From NCBI GenBank assembly GCA_963769935.1, contig CAVYNY010000020.1, forward strand, positions 128,001-192,000: DNA of 64,000 bases, written 5' to 3'. Every line of letters begins with the position of its first letter. Within the stretch, counting starts at the first letter, position 1. The translations under genes were made by a program, and so were the position numbers. The notes under the pieces are model-generated. The model worked only from the letters and a program-made list of their open reading frames with translations. It was not told where the DNA came from and did no database searches. The stretch comes from an uncultured delta proteobacterium (GTDB lineage Bacteria; Desulfobacterota; Desulfobacteria; Desulfobacterales; JAFDCJ01). Shown here piece after piece: positions 17,096-39,216 of this stretch.

Positions 17096-17607
17096 GTGGT
17101 CCTTTTTCCCCCACGGGCTGACTCATGAGACTGGTTTACAAATTCGGCGTCCGACCGTGCCGATTATCATTCGACTCCAGGTGCGCCCAATACACTGGAC
17201 TGTTTATTTTCAGATGCGAAAATTTTCTCTCATTTATGAACTATGGTCGATAAAAAGTCAATTAAATGTGCCGAAAGCTCTCTAAACCCTATATTCTGAA
17301 GTATCCGCCGTTGTCACACCGAGGTGTGACTGTGGCAAGGTTGGCTGGGGTGTTGAAATAATACAGTATTCAAAAAGCCTTCAGACCTATCGCGATCAGG
17401 CCAGTACGGCAGTATCCATAGCCACCGGCGCACACTGTATTGGTTATCAAAATAGCAGGCCATTATGAAGAAAGCATGAACCCGCCGATGATTTCCCGCC
17501 TAGACAAAACAGGAAAATGAGGCAGAGTATATAGAGCTGGTTGGGAAGTCCCTTAGCTGTAATTTATTTCTTGACAAAAATAGGCTCACTGTTTTACTGA
17601 AATATAT

Positions 17608-17772
17608 AAGGTGCGTAAGCTTAATAGGGAATCCCGTTAGAATCGGGAACGGTCCCGCCGCTGTAACCCTGCTTCATTAATTGAAGAAAACCAGTTCGGC
17701 CCCGTGCGCCACTGTATCGTTTTAACGGAATGGGAAGGCCGCCGGACGGGCGGGGGAGTCAGAAGACCTGCC
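17608..17772 (+). ncRNA. Cobalamin (B12) riboswitch
   Basis: AAGGTG...AATAGGGAATCCCG..GAATCGGGAACGGTCCCGCCGCTGT, GCCACTG...TGGGAAGGC, B12 box GAGTCAGAAGACCTGCC; TTGACA at 17571; upstream of cbiK. Confidence 0.95.
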
Positions 17773-17845
17773 TTGCCAATACGCTATTGCTCTGCGGGCA
17801 ACAGAGCGTGTTGTGATATGAAAAGGGTTAAGAAAACTGGGTGCA

Positions 17846-28725: not shown

Positions 28726-29325
28726 TTAGATATTGACGACCTTGTCGGCCAGCTGCATGGCGGTGACGATATCCAGCATATTGGTGGTCTCCCCGACCTG
28801 CTTTCGCTCCAACAGATTGAAGTGGTTCAGGCAGGTGCCGCAGACCATGATCTTAAGGCCGTCCTTTTCATACTGGCGGAGATCTTCCAGAACCTCCGAG
28901 CCGTCGATGGTCAGTTTCACGCCGTTGTTCACAAACACCAGCCTCCACAGCTCATTTCCCATCTCCTTGAGCGTACGCAGAAAATTGACCATCAACGCCA
29001 GGCCCAACGCGTCGTCGCCGAAGCCGATGCGGTCGGTGGCGCACATGACCATGATTTTCTTCAGTTCGTCGGATGGCTGTTCAACGGGTGGCTGAATTTG
29101 CTGCCCGGAGGCAGTATCGCAGGTTCCGATGACCAGGTAGTCGGCACCATTTTGCTCAAGCTTCGTTTGAAACCCCTGGGACTCCAGGAAGCGCTGGACA
29201 TTCTGCTGGGATGCGGCGTTGTCGACAACAATTCTCACGCCGGCGGGTTTTTCCTCCTGCAGCGCAGCCTTGGTTTGCAGCACCGGCGCCGGACACGCCA
29301 ATCCACGGGCATCGATTTCCTTCAT
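28726..29325 (-). CDS. yedF: Selenium-metabolism sulfurtransferase-like protein YedF (SirA/TusA plus DsrE domains)
   Basis: IDARGLACPAPV, FVNNGVKL, VCGTCLNHF, VGETTNM; directly downstream of selD. Confidence 0.9.
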   Translation of the reverse strand: MKEIDARGLACPAPVLQTKAALQEEKPAGVRIVVDNAASQQNVQRFLESQGFQTKLEQNGADYLVIGTCDTASGQQIQPPVEQPSDELKKIMVMCATDRIGFGDDALGLALMVNFLRTLKEMGNELWRLVFVNNGVKLTIDGSEVLEDLRQYEKDGLKIMVCGTCLNHFNLLERKQVGETTNMLDIVTAMQLADKVVNI

Positions 29326-29516: not shown

Positions 29517-30566
29517 TCATACCACGTATATTTTCTCTCTCGCGTCGCTTAGTATCTCCCCAATTTGCGCGGCATCTTCGATGCCTGCATTTTTCAGGTC
29601 CACAACGAGCGCTTCTGCCTGCCGCGCGCTTACACTGATCAGCAGGCCGCCCGAGGTCTGGGGATCGACCAGCACATCCTGCCGGGAGCGACCGACGGAA
29701 TCTGCGATGGTGATCATCGACTCCCGGAATTCTCTGTTTTTGTATGCTCCGGCGGGAATCAGCCCCATGGCAGCGAATTCCAGGGCTTCTGCAATCACCG
29801 GCACCTGATCCGCATAGATTTTTGCGCTCGTGCCCGAACCCAATACCATTTCGGCCAGATGGCCGAGCAGGCCGAAGCCGGTCACGTCGGTACAGGCGCC
29901 GACATCAAAATTCAACATGACGTCGGCGGCATCCCGGTTAAGAGCGGCCATCAATCGGGTTGCTTTGTCCGTGAGTTCCGCTGAAGCCATGGCCGCCTTG
30001 ATAGCGGTGTTGACAATTCCGCTGCCGAGCGGTTTCGTCAAAACCAGCCGGTCGCCCGGCCGCAGGTTCTTCTTGGTGAGCACCTTGGCCGGGTGCACGA
30101 TTCCGGTAACCGACAGACCGTATTTCAATTCCTGGTCTTCGATGCTGTGGCCGCCGATCAGAACCACTTCGGCCTCCGTTAGCTTGTCGAGCCCGCCCTG
30201 AATGATTTGCCGCAGAACCGACAGTTCCATATCCTTGACCGGAAAGGCTACCAGGTTCATGGCGGTCTTCGGCGTTCCGCCCATAGCGTAGACGTCGCTC
30301 AGGGCGTTGGCGGCGGCAATCTGTCCGAACCAGTATGGGTCGTCTACGATCGGTGTGAAGAAATCCACGGTCTGGATCAGCGCCAGCTCATCCGAAATCC
30401 TATACACACCGGCGTCGTCGGCGCGCTCCAAACCGACGATCACATTTTCATCGGTCGGAAACACCAGGCCGCACAGCGCCCGGTCCAGGTCCCCTGGAGC
30501 CAGTTTGGACGCTCAGCCGGATCCGGCGACCGTCTCGGTCAACCGTATTATCTTAATGTCGCTCAT
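29517..30566 (-). CDS. selD: Selenide, water dikinase SelD; selenoprotein with Sec18 (UGA at 30515-30513)
   Basis: MSDIKIIRLTETVAGSG-UGA-ASKL in frame with TVDFFTP, ANALSDVYAMGG, TDVTGFGLLGH, DPQTSGGLL; hairpin TCCAGG-GGA-CCTGGA with its loop 20 nt after UGA. Confidence 0.96.
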
Positions 30567-30731: not shown

Positions 30732-30935
30732 CTAACCGTCAAACGGACAGGACAGTTCTCCGGCATGGTATACGTGCTTCCGGCCGCAGAACGGGCAGGG
30801 TTGGTTGAGGGCTACCTTCGCATCCAGCGATTTGTTACCGGCCGCGTCGGTTATGACACCTCTGTTTTCCAGGATATTGAAATCCGGGCTTTCGAACACC
30901 TTGTTTTGAGTAGGACAGACAAAAATGAATTTCAT
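30732..30935 (-). CDS. Small Cys-rich hypothetical protein
   Basis: 67 aa with CP, CPFCG..H and SCPF motifs; co-oriented with the operon. Confidence 0.7.
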   Translation of the reverse strand: MKFIFVCPTQNKVFESPDFNILENRGVITDAAGNKSLDAKVALNQPCPFCGRKHVYHAGELSCPFDG

Positions 30936-30979
30936 ATGATTAATCCACCCGGAAACATGACACATCCAGAGTCGAAGCG

Positions 30980-31483
30980 CTACTGCTTGCCAGTTCCTTC
31001 AACCAGGCCGGAAAAAACGCACCGCAGAACCTTGTCGCTTATTTCCAGCAGCCGATCCTCTTGAAGATCTTCGACGATATCAGTTGAAGCGCCGTATGAG
31101 CGACTCGCGGGTGTCTGCGCTTTGGGAGAGATTTTAAGTAATTTACCCTTTCCGACAGGGACCTCTTTCAGGCGGCTGTTGTTTTCCAGCCAACGCTGGC
31201 ATTCATCGTGAGTGCCTAAAAAGGGGATATAGACCTTTCCCCCGCGCTGCAGGGTGATCAGCCGGTAGCCGCAGCCCAGATCGTATTTGCGGCAGTTCTT
31301 GATGCGATTCTCGCCGTACTTGGTATAGCTGCCGATCGCATCCATGTGGTGCCGGACAGCCCCCGAGGTCAGACTTTCGATAATGAGGATCGTTTTTTGC
31401 GCCAGGGCGACTCCCGCTTTGCCGGCTTTCTTAAGCGCTTCGATGCGGTTTTCGACCTTGACGCTGATATATAAATATTTCAT
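30980..31483 (-). CDS. Hypothetical protein (RelE-like segment KYDLGCGYRLI...FLGTHDE)
   Basis: 167-aa ORF inside the operon; fold guess from motif only. Confidence 0.65.
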   Translation of the reverse strand: MKYLYISVKVENRIEALKKAGKAGVALAQKTILIIESLTSGAVRHHMDAIGSYTKYGENRIKNCRKYDLGCGYRLITLQRGGKVYIPFLGTHDECQRWLENNSRLKEVPVGKGKLLKISPKAQTPASRSYGASTDIVEDLQEDRLLEISDKVLRCVFSGLVEGTGKQ

Positions 31484-31537: not shown

Positions 31538-32754
31538 TCAATCCAGCCCGCGGGGTCTCACCCGACTGGTTTCCGGTTTCAGTTCTCTTTTCAACCGGAG
31601 CTTGAGCAGCAGGCGGTTCAGGTAGGTGAAGGGCGACCGCGCCACCTTCAAACTGCCGTGCAGCGCAGCTTCGGGCCGATACAAAAGATCGGCGATGTGG
31701 ATAATCGGAACCGCCTGCTTTAGATAAGCGGCGCAGCCGGCACAGTAGGTAACCATGGGCCGATCGCCGTACTCACGGGCGCGGATACCCGACCAGCTCC
31801 CGGCGAATTCGGGCTTTACATACGCGACCATTCCGCCTTCTCCGCAGCAGACCGTGCGCTTGCCGCAGTGTTCCATCTCCGCCACCGTCAGCCCCATGCC
31901 GGTCAACAGGCTGCGGATTGCCTGCTGTACGTTCGCCTCGTTGCGCAGGGCACAGGGATCGTGCACGACGACCTCCCGGTCGCCGGCACGCGCGCCTTCC
32001 ATACCGCCGGATTCCTGGATGACTTCATAAACCGTCCTGACCCGGATGCCCTGGCCGTGATGCTGAAAAACGTTGAAACAGCTCGGACAGGCTACCAGAA
32101 CGGTCTTGACGCCCCGGCCTGATAAATAAGCGATCATCTCACCGAACATGGATTCGAAATAGGCCCGGCGACCCAGGTCATGGGAAGGTTTGGTGCAGCA
32201 GTCGAGCACGATTCCGATGGCGGGAATGATTTTCTGCAAATGCCGAAACATCCGCCGGGTCACCTCCGGCCGGGTTCCCGGCAGATTGCAGCCCGGGAAA
32301 AATACCGTATCGCAGCCCCGCGGCAGCCCATACCATGAAAACAGAGGCCGAAGTGCCGCGCTTTTCATAGCCTAAAATCGCTCCGGTAGGCGGCTTTGTC
32401 GAAATGGCCGCCGGCCGACATACAGCCGGCGCATCTCCAGAAAAAGGCCGCAGGGATCAAGGTTTTCCGGGCAGACAGCATTGCACAGGCCGCATAAACT
32501 GCATTCATAGGCTATCGCCAGATGCCGGGCGCGAGGAGAAATCAAGACTCCGATCGCATGGCTTTGGGTGTGCCGTAATGGGTTAAAAAGGCACACTCCC
32601 TGGTGCAGGCGCCGCACTCCGTGCAACGTTGCCGGATATCCTTTAGATACGGTTCCAAAGCGGGCGGCGCCTTGGCCTGGAAACCGCTTCGGCACGGCTT
32701 CAAATCCCCTGATTTCCCGCCGGAGCGGTCTCGATTTTTTAATTTTCTGCTCAT
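31538..32754 (-). CDS. (Fe-S)-binding CCG-domain oxidoreductase (HdrD/GlpC-like); frameshifts near 32540 and 32390
   Basis: CTECGACTREC, CSLCGLCNAVCP, FFPGC, CC, ACPSC, HDPC, CCGEGG, YCAGC across three frames. Confidence 0.85.
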
Positions 32755-33287
32755 TCAGACTTTTCCATCGGATAGCCGGCCCCTTTCCAGGCGAAGATTC
32801 CGCCCGGGTAGCGGTAGACATTCTTATAGCCGAGCTTGACGGCCCAGGCCGCCCCGTTGTGGCTGCGCGTGCATTTGACAAACCCGCAGTAGATGACGAT
32901 GGTTTTATTTTTGTCGCTGCCCAGCAGTTTTATAAAATCTTCCTGGGATTTGCCGTCGGTCTCCTGGGTGTTCCACTGGGGCATGTCCGGGATGGGAAAC
33001 AAAAACTGCACCGCGCCCGGCACATGATTTTTTTTGTAGCTGGCCTCATAGGGCATGGTGTCCACGATCACCATGTCCTTGCCGGCATCGATCCATTCTT
33101 TGAGTTCGGCGGTGGCGACCACATCGTATCCGCCCCGCTTCACGTCCCGCACGAGCTTGACCGCTTCGGTTTCCTTTTCCACTTCCTGTTCGAATTTGTT
33201 CTCGAACAGGGCGGCGGCCGGCCCGGCCAGGATGAACACCAGAATACCCGCCATCATCAGTTTCCGCACCGAATTAAATGTACGCAT
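32751..33287 (-). CDS. Exported rhodanese-like domain protein
   Basis: Signal peptide; VDTMP, HVPGA, YCGFVKCTRSH, YPGGIFAW. Confidence 0.9.
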   Translation of the reverse strand: MRTFNSVRKLMMAGILVFILAGPAAALFENKFEQEVEKETEAVKLVRDVKRGGYDVVATAELKEWIDAGKDMVIVDTMPYEASYKKNHVPGAVQFLFPIPDMPQWNTQETDGKSQEDFIKLLGSDKNKTIVIYCGFVKCTRSHNGAAWAVKLGYKNVYRYPGGIFAWKGAGYPMEKSE

Positions 33288-33773
33288 CTTCCGTCCTCCT
33301 TTTTTTTGCCAAGTTTTCTGATTATTAATGTTATCTTTACCGGCTGGATGGTACGGTAGCGGCGCCATCCATACATAAACCCAATTCCCGCCAGCATGGC
33401 CAGGTCACGGTAGAGGGACTCCCTGCAGGCCGTGGAAGGCCTTGGCTTCGGGATCGTCCGGGCCGAAGCAGCCGCAGTCCACGTCCAGCCCCATCCGGAT
33501 GCCGTAGCCCAATATGGCGATAAACAGCAACAGCAAACCGGCGATCACCGCCAGGCTGCCTTCGATCTCGCACAGCAGCCCGATGCCGCCGGCCACTTCC
33601 AGGGCCGGCAGGACGACGGCCACCGGCATGAGCAGGACTTGCGGCAGGATGCCGTAGGCCTCTATCAGAACGGCAAAGGTCCTGGGCTCCAGAAGTTTTA
33701 CGCACCCGGCATATATAAAGATGATCCCCAGACCCCAGCGGGCCAGTTTGTAGATCCAATCAACAGTTTTCAT
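33257..33773 (-). CDS. MauE/DoxX-family redox membrane protein; frameshift near 33420; 3' end approximate
   Basis: ARWGLGIIFIYAG..KL, LPALE, GLDVDCGCFG. Confidence 0.85.
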
Positions 33774-33817
33774 TGTGATGATCCCGCGAAAAAAACGCCC
33801 GGACTCGTCAACCGTCA

Positions 33818-34570
33818 TCATTCCCGGGCGAGAAGTGCCGCTCCCAGGGCCCCGACCAACTGCGGATCCTGCGGGCTCAGAATGCGACGGTCCAGTTTTT
33901 CTTCCAACAGCACCCGCATGCAGGGGTTTTTGGCCACCCCGCCGGTAAAGACGATATCCCCCTCCGACGACACCCGGTTGATCATGCCGGCGGCCCGGCG
34001 AATGACGCTGCTGTGCAGCCCCCGGGCGATTTCCCGCCGGTTCTGCCCCCTGGCGATCAGGGAAGTGACCTCGGATTCGGCAAATACCGTGCACATGCTG
34101 GAAATGTTGAGATCTTTTTCCGCCAGGAGGGCTTCGCTGCCGAATTCTTCGATTGCAAAGCCCAATGTTCGGGCCATGATTTCCAGAAATTTTCCGGTGC
34201 CGGCGGCGCAGCGGTCGTTCATTTCGAATTTTTTCACCCGGCCGTTGTCGAACAGCGAGATGGCCTTGCTGTCCTGCCCGCCGATATCCAGCACGGTGCG
34301 CACAGCCGGGAAAAACGCGCGGGCCCCTCTGGCATGGGCTTTGATCTCCGTAACCGTCGGGGCGTCAAAGGCGATCTCGAACAGGTTGCGGCCATAGCCG
34401 GTTGCCATGACACGATCATAGGCAATTCCGTCGACCAGCTTTTGGGCCTCGTCGATGGGATCAAAGCCGGTGTCGGCCTGCAGGCTGATAACGATTTCGC
34501 CCGCCTCATCCACCACCACCAGCTCGATGGTGCGTGAGCCGATATCAATTCCCGCAAAGCGCATACTCAC
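33818..34570 (-). CDS. ATP-dependent electron-transfer activase (BadF/HgdC family; DCCP-reductase-like)
   Basis: GIDIGS, ATGYGR, DIGGQDSK, MNDRCAAGTG, SMCTVFAESE, GGVAKN. Confidence 0.93.
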   Translation of the reverse strand: MSMRFAGIDIGSRTIELVVVDEAGEIVISLQADTGFDPIDEAQKLVDGIAYDRVMATGYGRNLFEIAFDAPTVTEIKAHARGARAFFPAVRTVLDIGGQDSKAISLFDNGRVKKFEMNDRCAAGTGKFLEIMARTLGFAIEEFGSEALLAEKDLNISSMCTVFAESEVTSLIARGQNRREIARGLHSSVIRRAAGMINRVSSEGDIVFTGGVAKNPCMRVLLEEKLDRRILSPQDPQLVGALGAALLARE

Positions 34571-34802: not shown

Positions 34803-36086
34803 CTACCGCAGCTGCTCGACAAAAGCCTCAACCCGGGTCTTCAGCTGGCCGATATCCTCCATGCTGTAGTCGGTTTCGATGCGCAGGCAGGGGATATTCT
34901 TTTCCTCCAGCGCTTTTTCCACCGGGATGGATTCCATCAGATACGGCTGGCAGAACTGCAGGCCGTAATGGATCACACCGTCGGCGTGGTAGGCGGCCAC
35001 CATTTCCCGGATATGGTTCAGGCGGTCCGGATTGGGCGTAAAAATGGCGCAATCGACCTTGAAAATAGCGATCCACGATGGCGTCCATCATTTCTTCCAC
35101 GGTCTGACCGGAATCATCTGTAAGGTTGCGGGTGCCGCGCTCGCCCACGCAGGACTCCTCGCCCACGATCACCCCGCCGGCGGTTTCCACAATCAGGGGC
35201 AGCTTCCAGTTGGGCACGGCCTGCGGGCAGCCGGAGACGAGAATCCGCGGGGTCTTGGGCGGGAAAACGCCCTTTTTTTCCGCAATCCGCTGCTCCAATT
35301 CGTCGCAGATTTTATTGACCGAGTCCGTAAACCGGGCCGGATTGTCGTAAAAGAAGACCTGGTTGGCCAGCAGGGCATCCAGGCCGGAGATGGGCGCCGG
35401 GTCGGCCTTACGCAGAGAGTGAGAGCCGATGGATGGCCGCCCGCTTGGCATTGACGGTCCGAATGGCCTGCTTCAGCGATTCGGCCGTGACAACAACACC
35501 CGTCAGTTTTTCGACCGCCGCCTTGAAACGCCCATATTCGGCCCGCAGCAAGTGCTTTGCCGTTTTCGGACTTGACCTGGGGCAGGTCCATCACGTAGAG
35601 GTTGTCAACCAGGGTATCAAGCGTTTCATAGGCCTTTTTCTTGCCGTCGCAGGTGTTTTCCCCCACGATCATGTCCGCGCTTTCCAGGTAGGGGCAGACC
35701 TTGCCGAGTTTAAACCCGAAGGATGATTTAATCAGGGCACAGGTGTTGCGGGGCAGCAGCTTTTCCACATCCTCGGTGGCAAAGTCGGCCCCGGAGCAAA
35801 GCCCCACCAGGGTGGCGTTGGCGGCCAGCACGATCTCCTCGGGCACGAAAACGCAATAGGAGCCGATGATTTTACGGCCGGCGGCCTTTTCGTCCAGCAA
35901 CTCCTTGATCCGCAAACCGTGGACCTCGCTCATGACGAAGTCAAAATAGCCCATCCCTTCCGGGCGGTCTTTCTGAGACAGGTAAATGTCCTGATAAGCT
36001 TTTCCCAAAACATCCAGCAGGGCGTCATGGGCTGCAAGATCGAGCCCCAGATCGGCCCACATCGAACGATAATCTTCACTCATCAT
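34803..36086 (-). CDS. Double-cubane-cluster-type reductase / 2-hydroxyacyl-CoA dehydratase family; several frameshifts
   Basis: YCVFVPEE, GLCSG, PRNTCALIKS, CPY, ENTCDGKKK, EESCVG, FCQPY, IETDYS..D.GQLKTRVEAF. Confidence 0.85.
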
Positions 36087-36300
36087 GTGCTCCTTTCAAC
36101 GATTGCTGCCTTTTTTCCCCCCGGCGGTCAGGCCGGATGGATGCAGCGGTTGCGTGGTTTTTCATTCAGAACGCGGCAGTTTCCGGGAAAGTTCGGCTGG
36201 ACCGATACCGACAGCAAAGATAGCATTTTTGTCCAAATGACGAATTGACGATGGCAGGTTGGATACGATTTTGGCATTCGGCGTCGTCTAACAAACCCGG

Positions 36301-36345
36301 TTAGCTGATTCAATGTCCTCAGGTAAAGCCAAAAACGTCACTCAT
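36301..36345 (-). CDS. Putative selenocysteine leader peptide MSDVFGFT(U)GH(U)IS
   Basis: RBS GAGGT 5 nt before ATG; in-frame UGA at codons 9 and 12; hairpin CTAAC-CGGGTTT-GTTAG; upstream TTGACA at 36433. Confidence 0.55.
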
Positions 36346-36463
36346 GGCGGACCTCGCGGAAGAGTTGCCCTTTCGATCAATTGGGGAGTAATTTTATAGA
36401 AATTTTATCGCATGGAAAATATCGATATGTCAAACAGGAAATTCCGATAGAAATGGGAGGCTG

Positions 36464-37375
36464 TTAAGGTTTTTCCGATAGGAGGAAATCATGCATGGCC
36501 TGGCAGGATGGCGAAGCGATCCGCAGTTTATTGCGAATCAGAAAAAAGCTGCGCGACATCGAAAGTCCTTTGACCTTCAAAGCTTTGAGCAGTCCGGCTT
36601 TAACCTCGGTGTCGATGGCAATGGCGGAGAGGATCGACAGGCCGAGGCCGGATTTGATGCCCTCTTTGACGGCCGTCGAGGAGCCGAAACGGGCGGAGAC
36701 TTGAAGGACGTTGCTGCCGTTCTTATCGGATTCACGCAGATTGGCCTCCAGGATCTTCAGCGTCCCGGAGCCTTCCTCCCGCAATATAAATGGGATTCCC
36801 CGCAGCTCCTGCAGGGAGACGGACTTGCGCCGGGCCCACGGGTGCCGGGCCGGGACGGCCAGCACCAGATCGTCCTCCCACAGTTTCTGGCACAAGAGGT
36901 TGGGGTGCAGACTTTTTTTTCCGATAACCCCGATCTCCAGTTTACCTTCAAGGACCTGATTTTCAATTTCACTGCTGTCCGCGATGGTCAGTTTCACAGA
37001 TAAGTGCGGGTACTTATTCTTAAATCTGCTGACGAGACCCGGAAGAATATACTCACCGGGGATGGTGCTGCCGCCCATGGAAATTTCTCCCTGCTCCAGT
37101 CCGAGAAACTTTTCCATTTCCAATTGGGCCGTTTCTTTCATTTCCAACAGGAGGACGGCATGCTTGTACACTATTTCGCCGGCGGCCGTCGGCACCACTT
37201 TTCTACCCAGGCGGTCCAGCAGCCGGATTCCGATTTTTTTTTCAAGCGAGGCGATCCTTTCACTGACCGAGGCCTGAACCAGAAAAACAGCTTCCGCAGC
37301 CTTCGAAAAACTCTCCAATTCGACTACTTTGCAAAAAATTTCAAGCTCGCGAAAACTGAAATCAATATTCAGCAT
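36464..37375 (-). CDS. LysR-family regulator (selenium-metabolism-associated type by context)
   Basis: SFSKAAEAVFLVQASVS..IASLE HTH; GGSTIPGEYILP; REEGSGT. Confidence 0.9.
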   Translation of the reverse strand: MLNIDFSFRELEIFCKVVELESFSKAAEAVFLVQASVSERIASLEKKIGIRLLDRLGRKVVPTAAGEIVYKHAVLLLEMKETAQLEMEKFLGLEQGEISMGGSTIPGEYILPGLVSRFKNKYPHLSVKLTIADSSEIENQVLEGKLEIGVIGKKSLHPNLLCQKLWEDDLVLAVPARHPWARRKSVSLQELRGIPFILREEGSGTLKILEANLRESDKNGSNVLQVSARFGSSTAVKEGIKSGLGLSILSAIAIDTEVKAGLLKALKVKGLSMSRSFFLIRNKLRIASPSCQAMHDFLLSEKP

Positions 37376-37862
37376 TTTCTGATTCTTCCTAATTAATCCG
37401 CCCTGAAAAATAGCTTCAGAAATTGAATATGGCATTCCGCGGCATTTTGCAAGGGTTGGAATTTTAGTTTGCGTTCAAGCATTCTGAAAAGGATTCTTTT
37501 CCCCCTCGGTCTGGAAGAAGCAATATAACCGGCAGTGCTTCAATGGCCGAGTTGTTTAGGGCTGAGCATTCCGCAAAAGTTTCGGAACCTTTGATTGACT
37601 TTATTGTCGATATCAGTATAAATCTTGAGCAGAAGCGTCAAAAGGGGGGCCACAGATTTTTGCGTAAAAGCCTATTCTTTCATTCTTCCCAACCCATCCC
37701 GGACAACGTACCCGCACCTTTGTCCGAAGACGGCATCCCGGCCTGGGATCCGGTGTTCATACACCCGCTCGCATTCAAAGCTAACCCTTATATGGATATG
37801 TCGCCGAATATATCAGTCTCTCCTGAGGCGGCGTTGTCATACCGATTCCGGAGAGCAAATCC

Positions 37863-39216
37863 ATGACGGAAGCTTGTCGCGAACGCTTGATAATCTTCAC
37901 CCGCTACCCGGAACCCGGTACGACCAAAACCCGCATGATACCGGAGCTGGGGCCGAAGGCGCCGCCGATCTCCAGCGCCGGATGACCGAGCACATTGTGG
38001 CCAGAGTTGTCAAGCTGATCGGGAATTGCGCAAAATGCCGGTGGAGATTCGCTATGAAGGCGGCAGTGAACAATTGATGGCCGCATGGCTGGGGAACGGC
38101 TTTTCCTATTGTCCCCAGGGTGAGGGGGACATCGGGCTTCGGATGGGGCGTGCCCTGGAGCAAGCTTTTACCCAGGAATTCGATAGCGTGGTGATTATCG
38201 GATCCGATATTCCGGATATCACGACCGAAATTCTGCAAAATGCGTTTGAGATGCTTAAACATATTGACCTGGTGCTGGGACCGGCCGGAGACGGGGGGTA
38301 TTATCTGATCGGTGTGCATCGCAAAACTTTCCGCCATTGGAATCCACAATTATTCGGCGATATCAGCTGGGGAACCGAAAGTGTTCTCCCCCAGACGCTG
38401 GCCATTGCCGAAAGATTAGGACTGAATTACCGTCTGCTCGATACACTCAATGATGTGGATCGGCCCGAAGATCTCAGCGTGTGGTATCAGGCTTCAAACC
38501 CGTGCCCCCCTTCAAACAACCCTATATCCCTGTCAGTTATCATACCGACTTTAAATGAAGCGGATACAATCGGTGAAACCGTTGCCGGTATTCGGCCAAA
38601 CAGCCGGACGGAAATCATTGTGGTTGACGGGGGCAGCCGGGACGGAACCGCCGAAATTGCCGAATCCCTGGGTGCCAAAGTGCTCAGGACTTCCCCCCCA
38701 AAGGGTGCCCAAATGAATGCCGGTGCTGCGGAAGCAGGCGGCGATGTACTGTTATTTTTGCATGCCGATACCCGCCTGCCGGAAAATTTCGAGGAATGTG
38801 TTCTGGCGGCTGCTGCCCAGGACGGCTTTTGTGCGGGCGCTTTTTCGTTGGGCATCGAATCATCTAAAAAGGGTCTCCGATTGATCGAAAAAGTTGCCAA
38901 CTGGCGTTCCCGCTTTCTTCAGTTGCCTTACGGCGATCAGGCACTATTTGTATTCCGCGACCGGTTTCAAGAGGTCGGAGGGTACCCGGAATATCCGATT
39001 ATGGAAGATTTCGTGTTAATCCGGCGTCTGAAAAATAAATGCAAAGTTAGCATTTTGCCGCAATCCGTGCAGACCTCGCCCCGACGTTGGCAAAACCTTG
39101 GCATTTTCAGAACCTGGCTGTTAAATCAGCTAATTATCGTTGCCTACTACCTCGGTATATCTCCCCGGCGACTCGCGCAATGGTATCGACGCGACAAGGA
39201 TCAACCCAATCAGTAA
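37863..39216 (+). CDS. Fused DUF2064 (TIGR04282-type) and GT2 (TIGR04283-type) glycosyltransferase; frameshifts near 37950-38035
   Basis: LIIFTRYPEPGTTKTRMIP, IGSDIP, LGPAGDGGYYLIG, DVD.PEDL; then SVIIPTLNE, VDGGS, FLHAD, GDQALF, MED, TSPRRW. Confidence 0.85.

Follow-up and report, generated by a model that had tools for sequence, protein, structure and literature searches.

Leader peptides such as trpL, hisL and pheL are encoded by short ORFs that have a ribosome binding site (RBS), codons for the amino acid of their operon, and bases that take part in a helix. The leader described here resembles these attenuators in that it has a putative sensing codon for the operon's own amino acid, selenocysteine (Sec), and a helix that a ribosome would open. 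Unlike them, it has one putatively recoded stop codon and a SECIS-type hairpin in place of a run of sense codons, a shortage would set RF2 against SelB, and neither an intrinsic terminator nor an antiterminator was found in it. In the portion of PMC8450073 that covers E. coli tnaC, the leader ends in UGA, inhibition of RF2 release leads to arrest, and a Rho-dependent site lies downstream; free tryptophan is sensed in the tunnel, and it is the ribosome itself that masks the Rho site. This system (PMC8450073, same portion) is our model for the steps proposed below. The present leader is unlike TnaC in its ORF of 8 codons, in its signal, which would be Sec-tRNA delivery, and in a C-rich tract that lies beyond the ribosome footprint.

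The nearest precedent is the operator of E. coli selAB, a SECIS-like element in the 5' UTR, 3 nt from the selA Shine-Dalgarno (SD) sequence (PMC13449736, in the text available). In both cases selenium genes are under a SelB-type hairpin in a leader, but the E. coli element is without a described ORF or UGA in the available text of PMC13449736, whereas the present leader has a conserved ORF with an in-frame UGA. Its hairpin does not adjoin an SD sequence, the median distance to the next start being 201 nt. In Methanococcus, HrsM/LysR_Se represses Cys isoenzymes when selenium is adequate (excerpts of PMC11097638 and PMC5322559), and its signal is stated as unknown (excerpt of PMC11097638). The target logic is the same here, with Cys back-ups behind the leader and a LysR_Se gene directly upstream in the window. 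Unlike HrsM, a protein repressor on DNA, the leader would be an RNA and ribosome element, and the two kinds of control may be layered. Finally, selC*/selB* place Cys at UGA (PMC5389517 and PMC7609411, in part). Such a system, with a U73 tRNA of UCA or GCA anticodon before a second selB, is one target of the leader. No leader or regulation for selC*-selB* is mentioned in the available parts of PMC5389517 (including one supplement) or PMC7609411. A full-text literature search, with subscription journals mostly outside its coverage and a prior mention therefore possible, returned no bacterial Sec-codon leader. The leader is real and conserved, and seems not to have been described in print.

The leader and its surroundings in the window

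The window is the whole stretch of 64,000 nucleotides that was analysed, from an uncultured member of the Desulfobacterales. The initial annotation proposed a Sec-sensing leader peptide on its minus strand, between a LysR gene and a double-cubane reductase gene, and all of the letters on which that proposal was built are present. These are TTGACA, which resembles a -35 box (36433-36428, 88 nt before the mini-ORF ATG), the SD-like GAGGT (36355-36351), the mini-ORF MSDVFGFT-UGA (36345-36319, ATG at 36345), which belongs to the family M-x-x-x-F-G-F-T-UGA, two in-frame TGA codons (36321-36319 and 36312-36310), the TAA (36303-36301) that closes a read-through extension G-H-(UGA)-I-S-TAA (36318-36301), the sequence and frame of which are not conserved, and a SECIS-type hairpin with a 5-bp stem and a CGGGUUU loop (36304-36288). 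As first described, the loop lies 19 nt past the first UGA, and the UGA of selD in the window has a GGGA-loop hairpin at a similar distance. The next start after the leader is at 36086 (minus strand).

A promoter scan of 36000-36600 found no -10 partner for the TTGACA at 36433. Of 186 leaders, 157 have TTGAC[A/T] in the 130 nt upstream, most often at 50-79 nt from the ATG. In the window this box is part of a longer motif that is also found before selenium operons without a leader (loci L008-L012, L015, L017, L019). Repeats of a TATCGGAA-type motif together with TTTGACATATCG were observed at 36420-36485 (minus strand) and in the same set of loci, before selenium operons with or without a leader; they are a candidate LysR_Se binding site and promoter. 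The statement that no U-tract terminator is visible agrees with our scan, in which no terminator-like sites were found in 36000-36600.

Both flanking genes match NCBIfam models. Directly upstream is the LysR_Se gene (36464..37435, minus strand; NF040786, selenium metabolism-associated LysR, 275 bits vs a cut-off of 250). A fused TIGR04282/TIGR04283 glycosyltransferase-like gene, its 5' part scored from an internal start, lies beside it (38026-39216, plus strand). The first gene behind the leader is the double-cubane reductase (34803..36086, minus strand), which matches NF040772 in two frameshifted pieces that each score below the cut-off. Contigs from RNA libraries of relatives have one base fewer near 35059-62 and 35415-20. 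Relative to such contigs, single extra bases at 35059-35062, 35415-35420, 33425 and 33300 coincide with frameshifts in the operon genes, and are either assembly errors or recent decay.

The operon continues on the same strand with an ATP-dependent activase, the partner of the double-cubane protein (33818..34570; TIGR00241, over cut-off), genes for a MauE-family membrane protein and a rhodanese-domain protein (32751..33989; PF07291, with rhodanese models below cut-off), and, before selD, an Fe-S gene in pieces and two unnamed genes. A 167-aa unnamed protein with a predicted RelE/ParE-like fold (30980..31483, minus strand) recurs behind leaders. Then follow selD (29517..30566, minus strand; TIGR00476, over cut-off), with an in-frame UGA at 30515-30513, and yedF (28726..29325, minus strand; TIGR03527, over cut-off). 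Gene order suggests that selD and yedF, ~6-7 kb downstream, would be co-transcribed with the leader. An operon-wide scan found 12 terminators vs 13.1 in shuffles, and thus no excess. A 77-aa unnamed protein with a CPFC motif is also encoded (30732-30965, minus strand), and its relatives are often located directly before selD or first behind a leader. Elsewhere in the window there is a cobalamin riboswitch (17592-17789, plus strand, 82.9 bits).

The source genome encodes rho and, of the Sec machinery, tRNA-Sec (G73), selB and selD. A loose pattern of SD, ATG, UGA and hairpin has 7 matches in its 8 Mb, covariance model R1 identifies one leader copy, and the folding of the leader region is no stronger than that of shuffles (z 0.90 and -0.02), these z-scores being uninformative for the leader. 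The evidence from the source genome alone is modest. Sequence comparison across genomes puts the leader far above chance.

Conservation of the mini-ORF and its stop codon

The leader family comprises an SD sequence, ATG, M-x-x-x-F-G-F-T, UGA, a gap of 13-18 nt, a 5-bp hairpin with a GGG loop, and the 3' strand of a helix that we term P1. A DNA search of 61 genomes gave matches in 16, with the mini-ORF region covered in 9 relatives. A metagenome search, in which FGFT-TGA and the hairpin were fixed and the ATG and SD were left free, recovered 102 loci; together with 9 earlier loci these provide 87 unique copies. An ATG is present exactly 8 codons before the UGA in 86 of the 87, and an SD-like word, which had not been searched for, in 81 of 86, so that both the conserved short ORF and the RBS of the initial proposal are borne out. 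A structured RNA that is not translated, riboswitch-like or protein-binding, with an incidental resemblance to an ORF, would also constrain the bases that pair in P1. We consider this very improbable, given that neither the in-frame ATG nor the SD was part of the search, that longer leader variants (10, 11 and 12 codons) stay in frame, and that no Rfam 15 model matched the leader at its gathering score (one chance-level snoRNA match, 13.5 bits vs 45). It is also at odds with a relative (L016:418-1053) in which yedF continues in frame from the first 8 codons of the leader, the UGA and hairpin being deleted; this fusion is a possible escape from control, or a mis-assembly.

In a separate genome scan the ATG, FGFT and the 5' arm of the hairpin were fixed, and codon 9 and the 3' arm of the hairpin were free. 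This identified at least 121 loci. Codon 9 is UGA in 115 of the 119 unique matches listed, and is never UAA, UAG or a Cys codon, as expected if the first UGA is invariant. The other four have only 2-4 of 5 stem positions paired and two are titled as an actinomycete and an Oceanospirillaceae bin; with poor pairing and, in two cases, unrelated hosts, we read them as chance matches. The leader family thus has an in-frame UGA in a translatable ORF, as a recoding site does.

Long open frames of the source genome end in TGA (1446), TAA (1387) or TAG (831). These numbers bear on the possibility that the UGA is a plain stop and the short ORF serves only to open P1, so that SelB-GTP-Sec-tRNA can bind the hairpin. 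This would have a precedent in the 5' UTR of E. coli selAB (PMC13449736, in the text available), and is in keeping with a conserved hairpin and with nothing in frame being conserved after the UGA. It appears improbable in view of the absence of UAA and UAG from all 119 matches listed, when these make up 61% of long-frame stops in the source genome, of a UGA-hairpin spacing that is held at decoding distance, and of the ~200 nt that separate the hairpin from the next RBS, as against 3 nt in E. coli.

Covariance model R1 gave matches of which 41 were inspected; 38 were parsed automatically, and two more have TGA by eye. Among the 38, the residues of FGFT are encoded in 36 (F), 37 (G), 38 (F) and 36 (T), with codon positions 1-2 nearly fixed and position 3 variable. 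Three model matches look decayed (L146 is without ATG and UGA, and L132 and L154 have broken hairpins). Conservation of FGFT is suggestive of nascent-peptide arrest; third-position variation is partly tied to P1, so selection on the peptide is not cleanly separable from RNA pairing. The base that follows a stop codon affects the strength of termination, and strong-stop contexts exist. In 99 leaders the UGA is followed by U twice and by A 10 times; the corresponding numbers for 1231 UGA stops of long ORFs are 354 and 439. We read this avoidance of U and A as selection for weak termination.

Relatedness among the copies, which form two subtypes, makes the leader counts overstate their independence. 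Part of the motif was fixed in either pattern scan, and the UGA is held invariant in the models.

The two UGAs in the window were at first read as U-G-H-U, a counterpart of a CxxC redox motif. This does not extend to the family: of 87 unique copies, 7 have a second UGA at codon 12, and none has Cys there. Cys variants, which the initial annotation suggested looking for, were found neither at codon 9 (119 matches listed) nor at codon 12 (87 copies). Spacers between UGA and hairpin of 13, 14, 15 and 16 nt occur in 4, 67, 8 and 8 of the 87 copies, and the frame behind the first UGA shifts with them. Given the rarity of the second UGA and the shifting frame, U-G-H-U is an accident of the source lineage. 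In the window copy, a ribosome that reads through the first UGA would meet the second 3 codons later and be stopped or slowed there. Of 115 matches listed, 10 have their next stop ahead of the hairpin, 73 inside it or shortly past it, and 32 farther downstream, up to >60 nt beyond the hairpin start. A conserved protein past the TAA (PGLLD...) was considered and ruled out by the shift of frame with the spacer.

A tiny selenopeptide of the UxxU kind, with a redox or selenium-carrier role for the product itself, had been offered as an alternative, and draws on the two in-frame UGAs of the window copy and the conservation of FGFT. UxxC/UxxU selenoproteins have a conserved second Sec or Cys and Cys homologues. 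Neither was found here (no Cys homologue at codon 9), frame and length vary after the UGA, and we give this alternative almost no weight.

Hairpin and P1 helix

Covariation of the hairpin, for which the initial annotation suggested testing, is supported by the 3' arm that was left free in the genome scan, which pairs at 5 of 5 positions in 99 and at 4 of 5 in 16 of the 115 matches listed (random expectation 0.9% and 10%). The fourth pair is C-G in 80 and A-U in 30 of the matches listed, and 47 and 17, respectively, in an alignment of 66 sequences. In ViennaRNA the hairpin is weak, with a probability >0.5 in 22-23 of 106 leaders. The first G of the loop is 21-25 nt after the UGA in leaders (matches listed), and 18-24 nt, counted by eye, after Sec codons of the source genome, for which 19 sites were selected by eye among the results of a Sec/Cys-pair search. 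CGG(G)U loops at ~18-20 nt are found in the source genome in RnfB, MsrA, a rhodanese and two formate dehydrogenases, and four loop types of its Sec codons share CGG(G)U with the leader hairpin. The leader therefore has, just 3' of its UGA, a G-loop hairpin like those of its host. In the same search, Sec was suggested in RnfB, MsrA, a thioredoxin, a thioredoxin-like protein and the CxxC site of a hydrogenase large subunit (source genome G000, C9, C11, C20 and C22), and each of these UGAs has a hairpin behind it.

P1 is formed by about codons 3-8 of the mini-ORF and a strand 3' of the hairpin. In the window the 5' strand, in codons 3-6 of the mini-ORF, is at 36338-36328 and pairs in folds with the 3' strand at 36275-36265 (minus strand). 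P1 covaries, with 93% and 87% of cells paired in two alignments and double changes in excess. The duplex energy is -16.3 kcal/mol when each leader is paired with itself, -11.7 in cross-pairs and -8.5 in shuffles; self pairing beats the cross mean in 94 of 106 leaders, and P1 has a probability >0.5 in 101 of 106 local folds. A ribosome at the UGA would cover the 5' strand. Thus, as in trpL-type leaders, a short ORF with the putative sensing codon overlaps a covarying and putatively regulatory helix, P1. RNAalifold also proposed a helix between the Thr-UGA bases and the loop of the hairpin, which found no support (-7.4 for self and -7.2 for shuffled pairs; 7 of 106 leaders with a probability >0.5).

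Genes behind the leader

The first gene behind the leader varies. Among 71 loci with at least 900 nt downstream (matches listed), supply genes (yedE, yedF, selD, porin) were identified in 39, back-up genes in 26 and either in 63, using crude motifs. Representatives named include selB, yedE, an ExtI-type porin, PstS/ModA-like binding proteins, HdrA, MvhD and FdhA, as well as HdrD-like proteins, [FeFe] hydrogenase, OS_HP2 (seleno)protein and a TonB receptor. Sites that can be either Sec or Cys are all Cys and never Sec in the 18 loci where they occur behind leaders (6 motif matches in HdrA, 2 in Fdh and 21 in MvhD, the last partly double-counted), vs Sec/Cys ratios of 5/2 for HdrA, 3/0 for Fdh and 5/6 for MvhD among the source genome's own copies. 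Five genomes were tested for mvhD, and in all 5 the copy linked to a leader lacks a TGA that is present in paralogues elsewhere.

Of 190 unique leaders, 141 of which have 300 nt of flank, 14 are followed by a selC*-type tRNA at a distance of 83-212 nt from the hairpin. These tRNAs have a long arm, U73 and the anticodon UCA (13) or GCA (1), and one is incomplete at its 3' end. A second, divergent selB lies behind the tRNA in the 7 loci examined. With U73, a UCA or GCA anticodon and a second selB downstream, tRNA and selB match the selC*/selB* system by sequence. No cysS* was identified; second cysS-like matches are long ORFs, and are not beside selB* in L290. Leaders directly before such a tRNA and a second selB were observed in L134, L140, L175, L176, L188, L206, L225 and others, with two selC*-type tRNAs in L225 and the GCA form in L174.

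Given Cys back-up enzymes and selC*/selB* as targets, the leader would be ON in selenium shortage, and a tRNA as the first target favours control of transcription. P1, the conserved FGFT, and the Cys back-up and selC*/selB* targets had all been missed in the initial annotation.

The 167-aa protein has 20 distinct relatives in loci around leaders, in supply and Cys back-up operons alike. Leads to its function are ParE-like annotations in a protein atlas (0.85-0.87), weak Pfam ParE/YafQ/HigB matches in a few members, and a structure model (pLDDT 73.5) for which the listed Foldseek matches are all of RelE/ParE fold (best E 0.009). No single lead is strong alone, and the protein is predicted to be RelE/ParE-like. 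One may speculate that it could act on ribosomes stalled at UGA.

Distribution of the leader

Among 151 genomes sampled from the order, covariance model R1 detects the leader in 28 and R2 in 49; for 151 genomes of the phylum the numbers are 6 and 9. A genome may have as many as four copies. Almost all named carriers among the matches listed are Desulfobacterota-type records, and they include the cultured Desulfosarcina alkanivorans PL12, D. cetonica and Dethiosulfatarculus sandiegensis. No match was found in plasmids. Several selenium operons in the source genus are without a leader. As selB is present in 145 of 151 genomes of the order, its co-occurrence with the leader says little; in one leader-bearing draft genome (G129, 95% complete) no selB match was found.

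Leader pairs a few hundred bases apart, several of them on opposite strands, were observed in L151/L166 (G129:C230), G163:C57 and C83, and G167:C62. Internal deletions that take out a large part of the double-cubane and activase genes behind an intact leader were seen in L002, L003, L004, L024, L030 and L058. Three RNA runs contained 6-8% of the query words, and three contigs from two studies cover related leaders at a depth of 2.4-3.8, which says nothing about strand, level, ends or transcription.

Proposed mechanism

A selenium-feedback leader, as proposed in the initial annotation, remains the best reading of a conserved mini-ORF with an RBS, an invariant UGA and a covarying hairpin before selenium genes. 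From these comparisons we consider it likely that the leader senses the decoding of UGA and is ON when selenium is short.

Several routes to an output were considered. Intrinsic terminators were found in 0 of 121 leaders (matches listed; 1.2 expected in shuffles), and a U-tract after P1 (6 U) in 2 of 99, which does not support P1 as a terminator. No antiterminator or conserved alternative helix was identified (P1 3' strand vs downstream RNA -15.4, shuffles -14.9). The terminator and competing antiterminator of trpL-type leaders are thus not found. In translational attenuators of the ermC/cat type, the ribosome exposes the next RBS. Here, 76 leaders were folded at equilibrium with the ribosome modelled in different states, and the next RBS had a mean accessibility of 0.43, 0.44 and 0.43, with 9 leaders gaining and 1 losing more than 0.1. 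C is at least twice as frequent as G in 11% of 2708 control windows; among 106 leaders, the share is 70% at h+20-60 (20-60 nt from the hairpin) and 58% at h+30-70. In the window, this C-rich, G-poor tract (36267-36228, minus strand; 12 C and 6 G) is a candidate Rho loading site. A C-rich, G-poor tract and a rho gene are thus both present, as for tnaC, the former as a matter of composition among copies that are kin; the tract is 50-90 nt from the UGA, beyond the footprint of a ribosome there. With no terminator or antiterminator found and no mean change at the RBS in equilibrium folds, and with a C-rich tract, rho and a tRNA as first target, Rho-dependent attenuation is the best guess, and by analogy the leader probably acts on transcription through Rho. 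Since neither a conserved alternative helix nor a mean change in RBS accessibility was found in the folds, the output step is the weakest part of the model.

We propose that a ribosome would load on the mini-ORF before P1 can close. Without Sec-tRNA on SelB, it would dwell at the UGA, with FGFT slowing release by RF2, and would keep P1 open, so that transcription continues (ON). With Sec-tRNA, SelB on the hairpin would insert Sec, and the ribosome would cross the hairpin to the next stop and leave. P1 would then close, and the naked C-rich tract would let Rho end the transcript (OFF). Where the leader precedes selC*/selB*, insertion of Cys at UGA would feed back on the sensor codon. Sec insertion, stalling, the direction of control and the role of Rho are inferred, and we give about even chances to an attenuator wired exactly in this way, by stalling at the UGA, P1 and Rho. 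The frameshifted first target gene counts against the model at the window locus.

The opposite wiring accommodates all of the conservation evidence equally well. RF2 would release the ribosome quickly when Sec-tRNA is lacking, and P1 would close (ON); slow SelB-dependent decoding and read-through would keep P1 open (OFF), with Rho, RNA decay or blocked translation of the next gene as the output. No arrest peptide is needed, read-through ribosomes would cross the hairpin or the P1 3' strand in most copies, and P1 overlaps the start of the C-rich tract. We nevertheless judge this wiring rather unlikely: the fixed codon positions 1-2 of FGFT and the avoidance of strong-stop contexts are left unexplained, and no RBS switch is seen in folds.

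Returning to a ribosome that dwells at the UGA, we offer a broader and more tentative proposal, which is plausible but somewhat doubtful as a whole. FGFT may be an arrest motif that holds the ribosome at the UGA until SelB delivers an aminoacyl-tRNA, and this one codon may gauge how well the cell can recode UGA and run an entire selenium-starvation regulon in the Desulfobacterota, consisting of uptake, selenium activation, Cys isoenzymes, selC*/selB* and a stand-alone RelE-fold protein, which would perhaps clear ribosomes stuck at Sec codons that cannot be decoded.

Implications

With an element of ~110 nt and cultured carriers, the leader is directly testable, and the efficiency of Sec insertion could be followed with it as a reporter. 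With this leader, the 21st amino acid would join those sensed by leader-peptide attenuation, with the competition between termination and recoding as the signal. The leader addresses the open question of selenium sensing in anaerobes and of their exchange of Sec enzymes for Cys copies. For sulfate reducers, the leader would be a concrete and mutable answer, with a predicted regulon that includes the conditions under which the selC*/selB* system for Cys at UGA is used.
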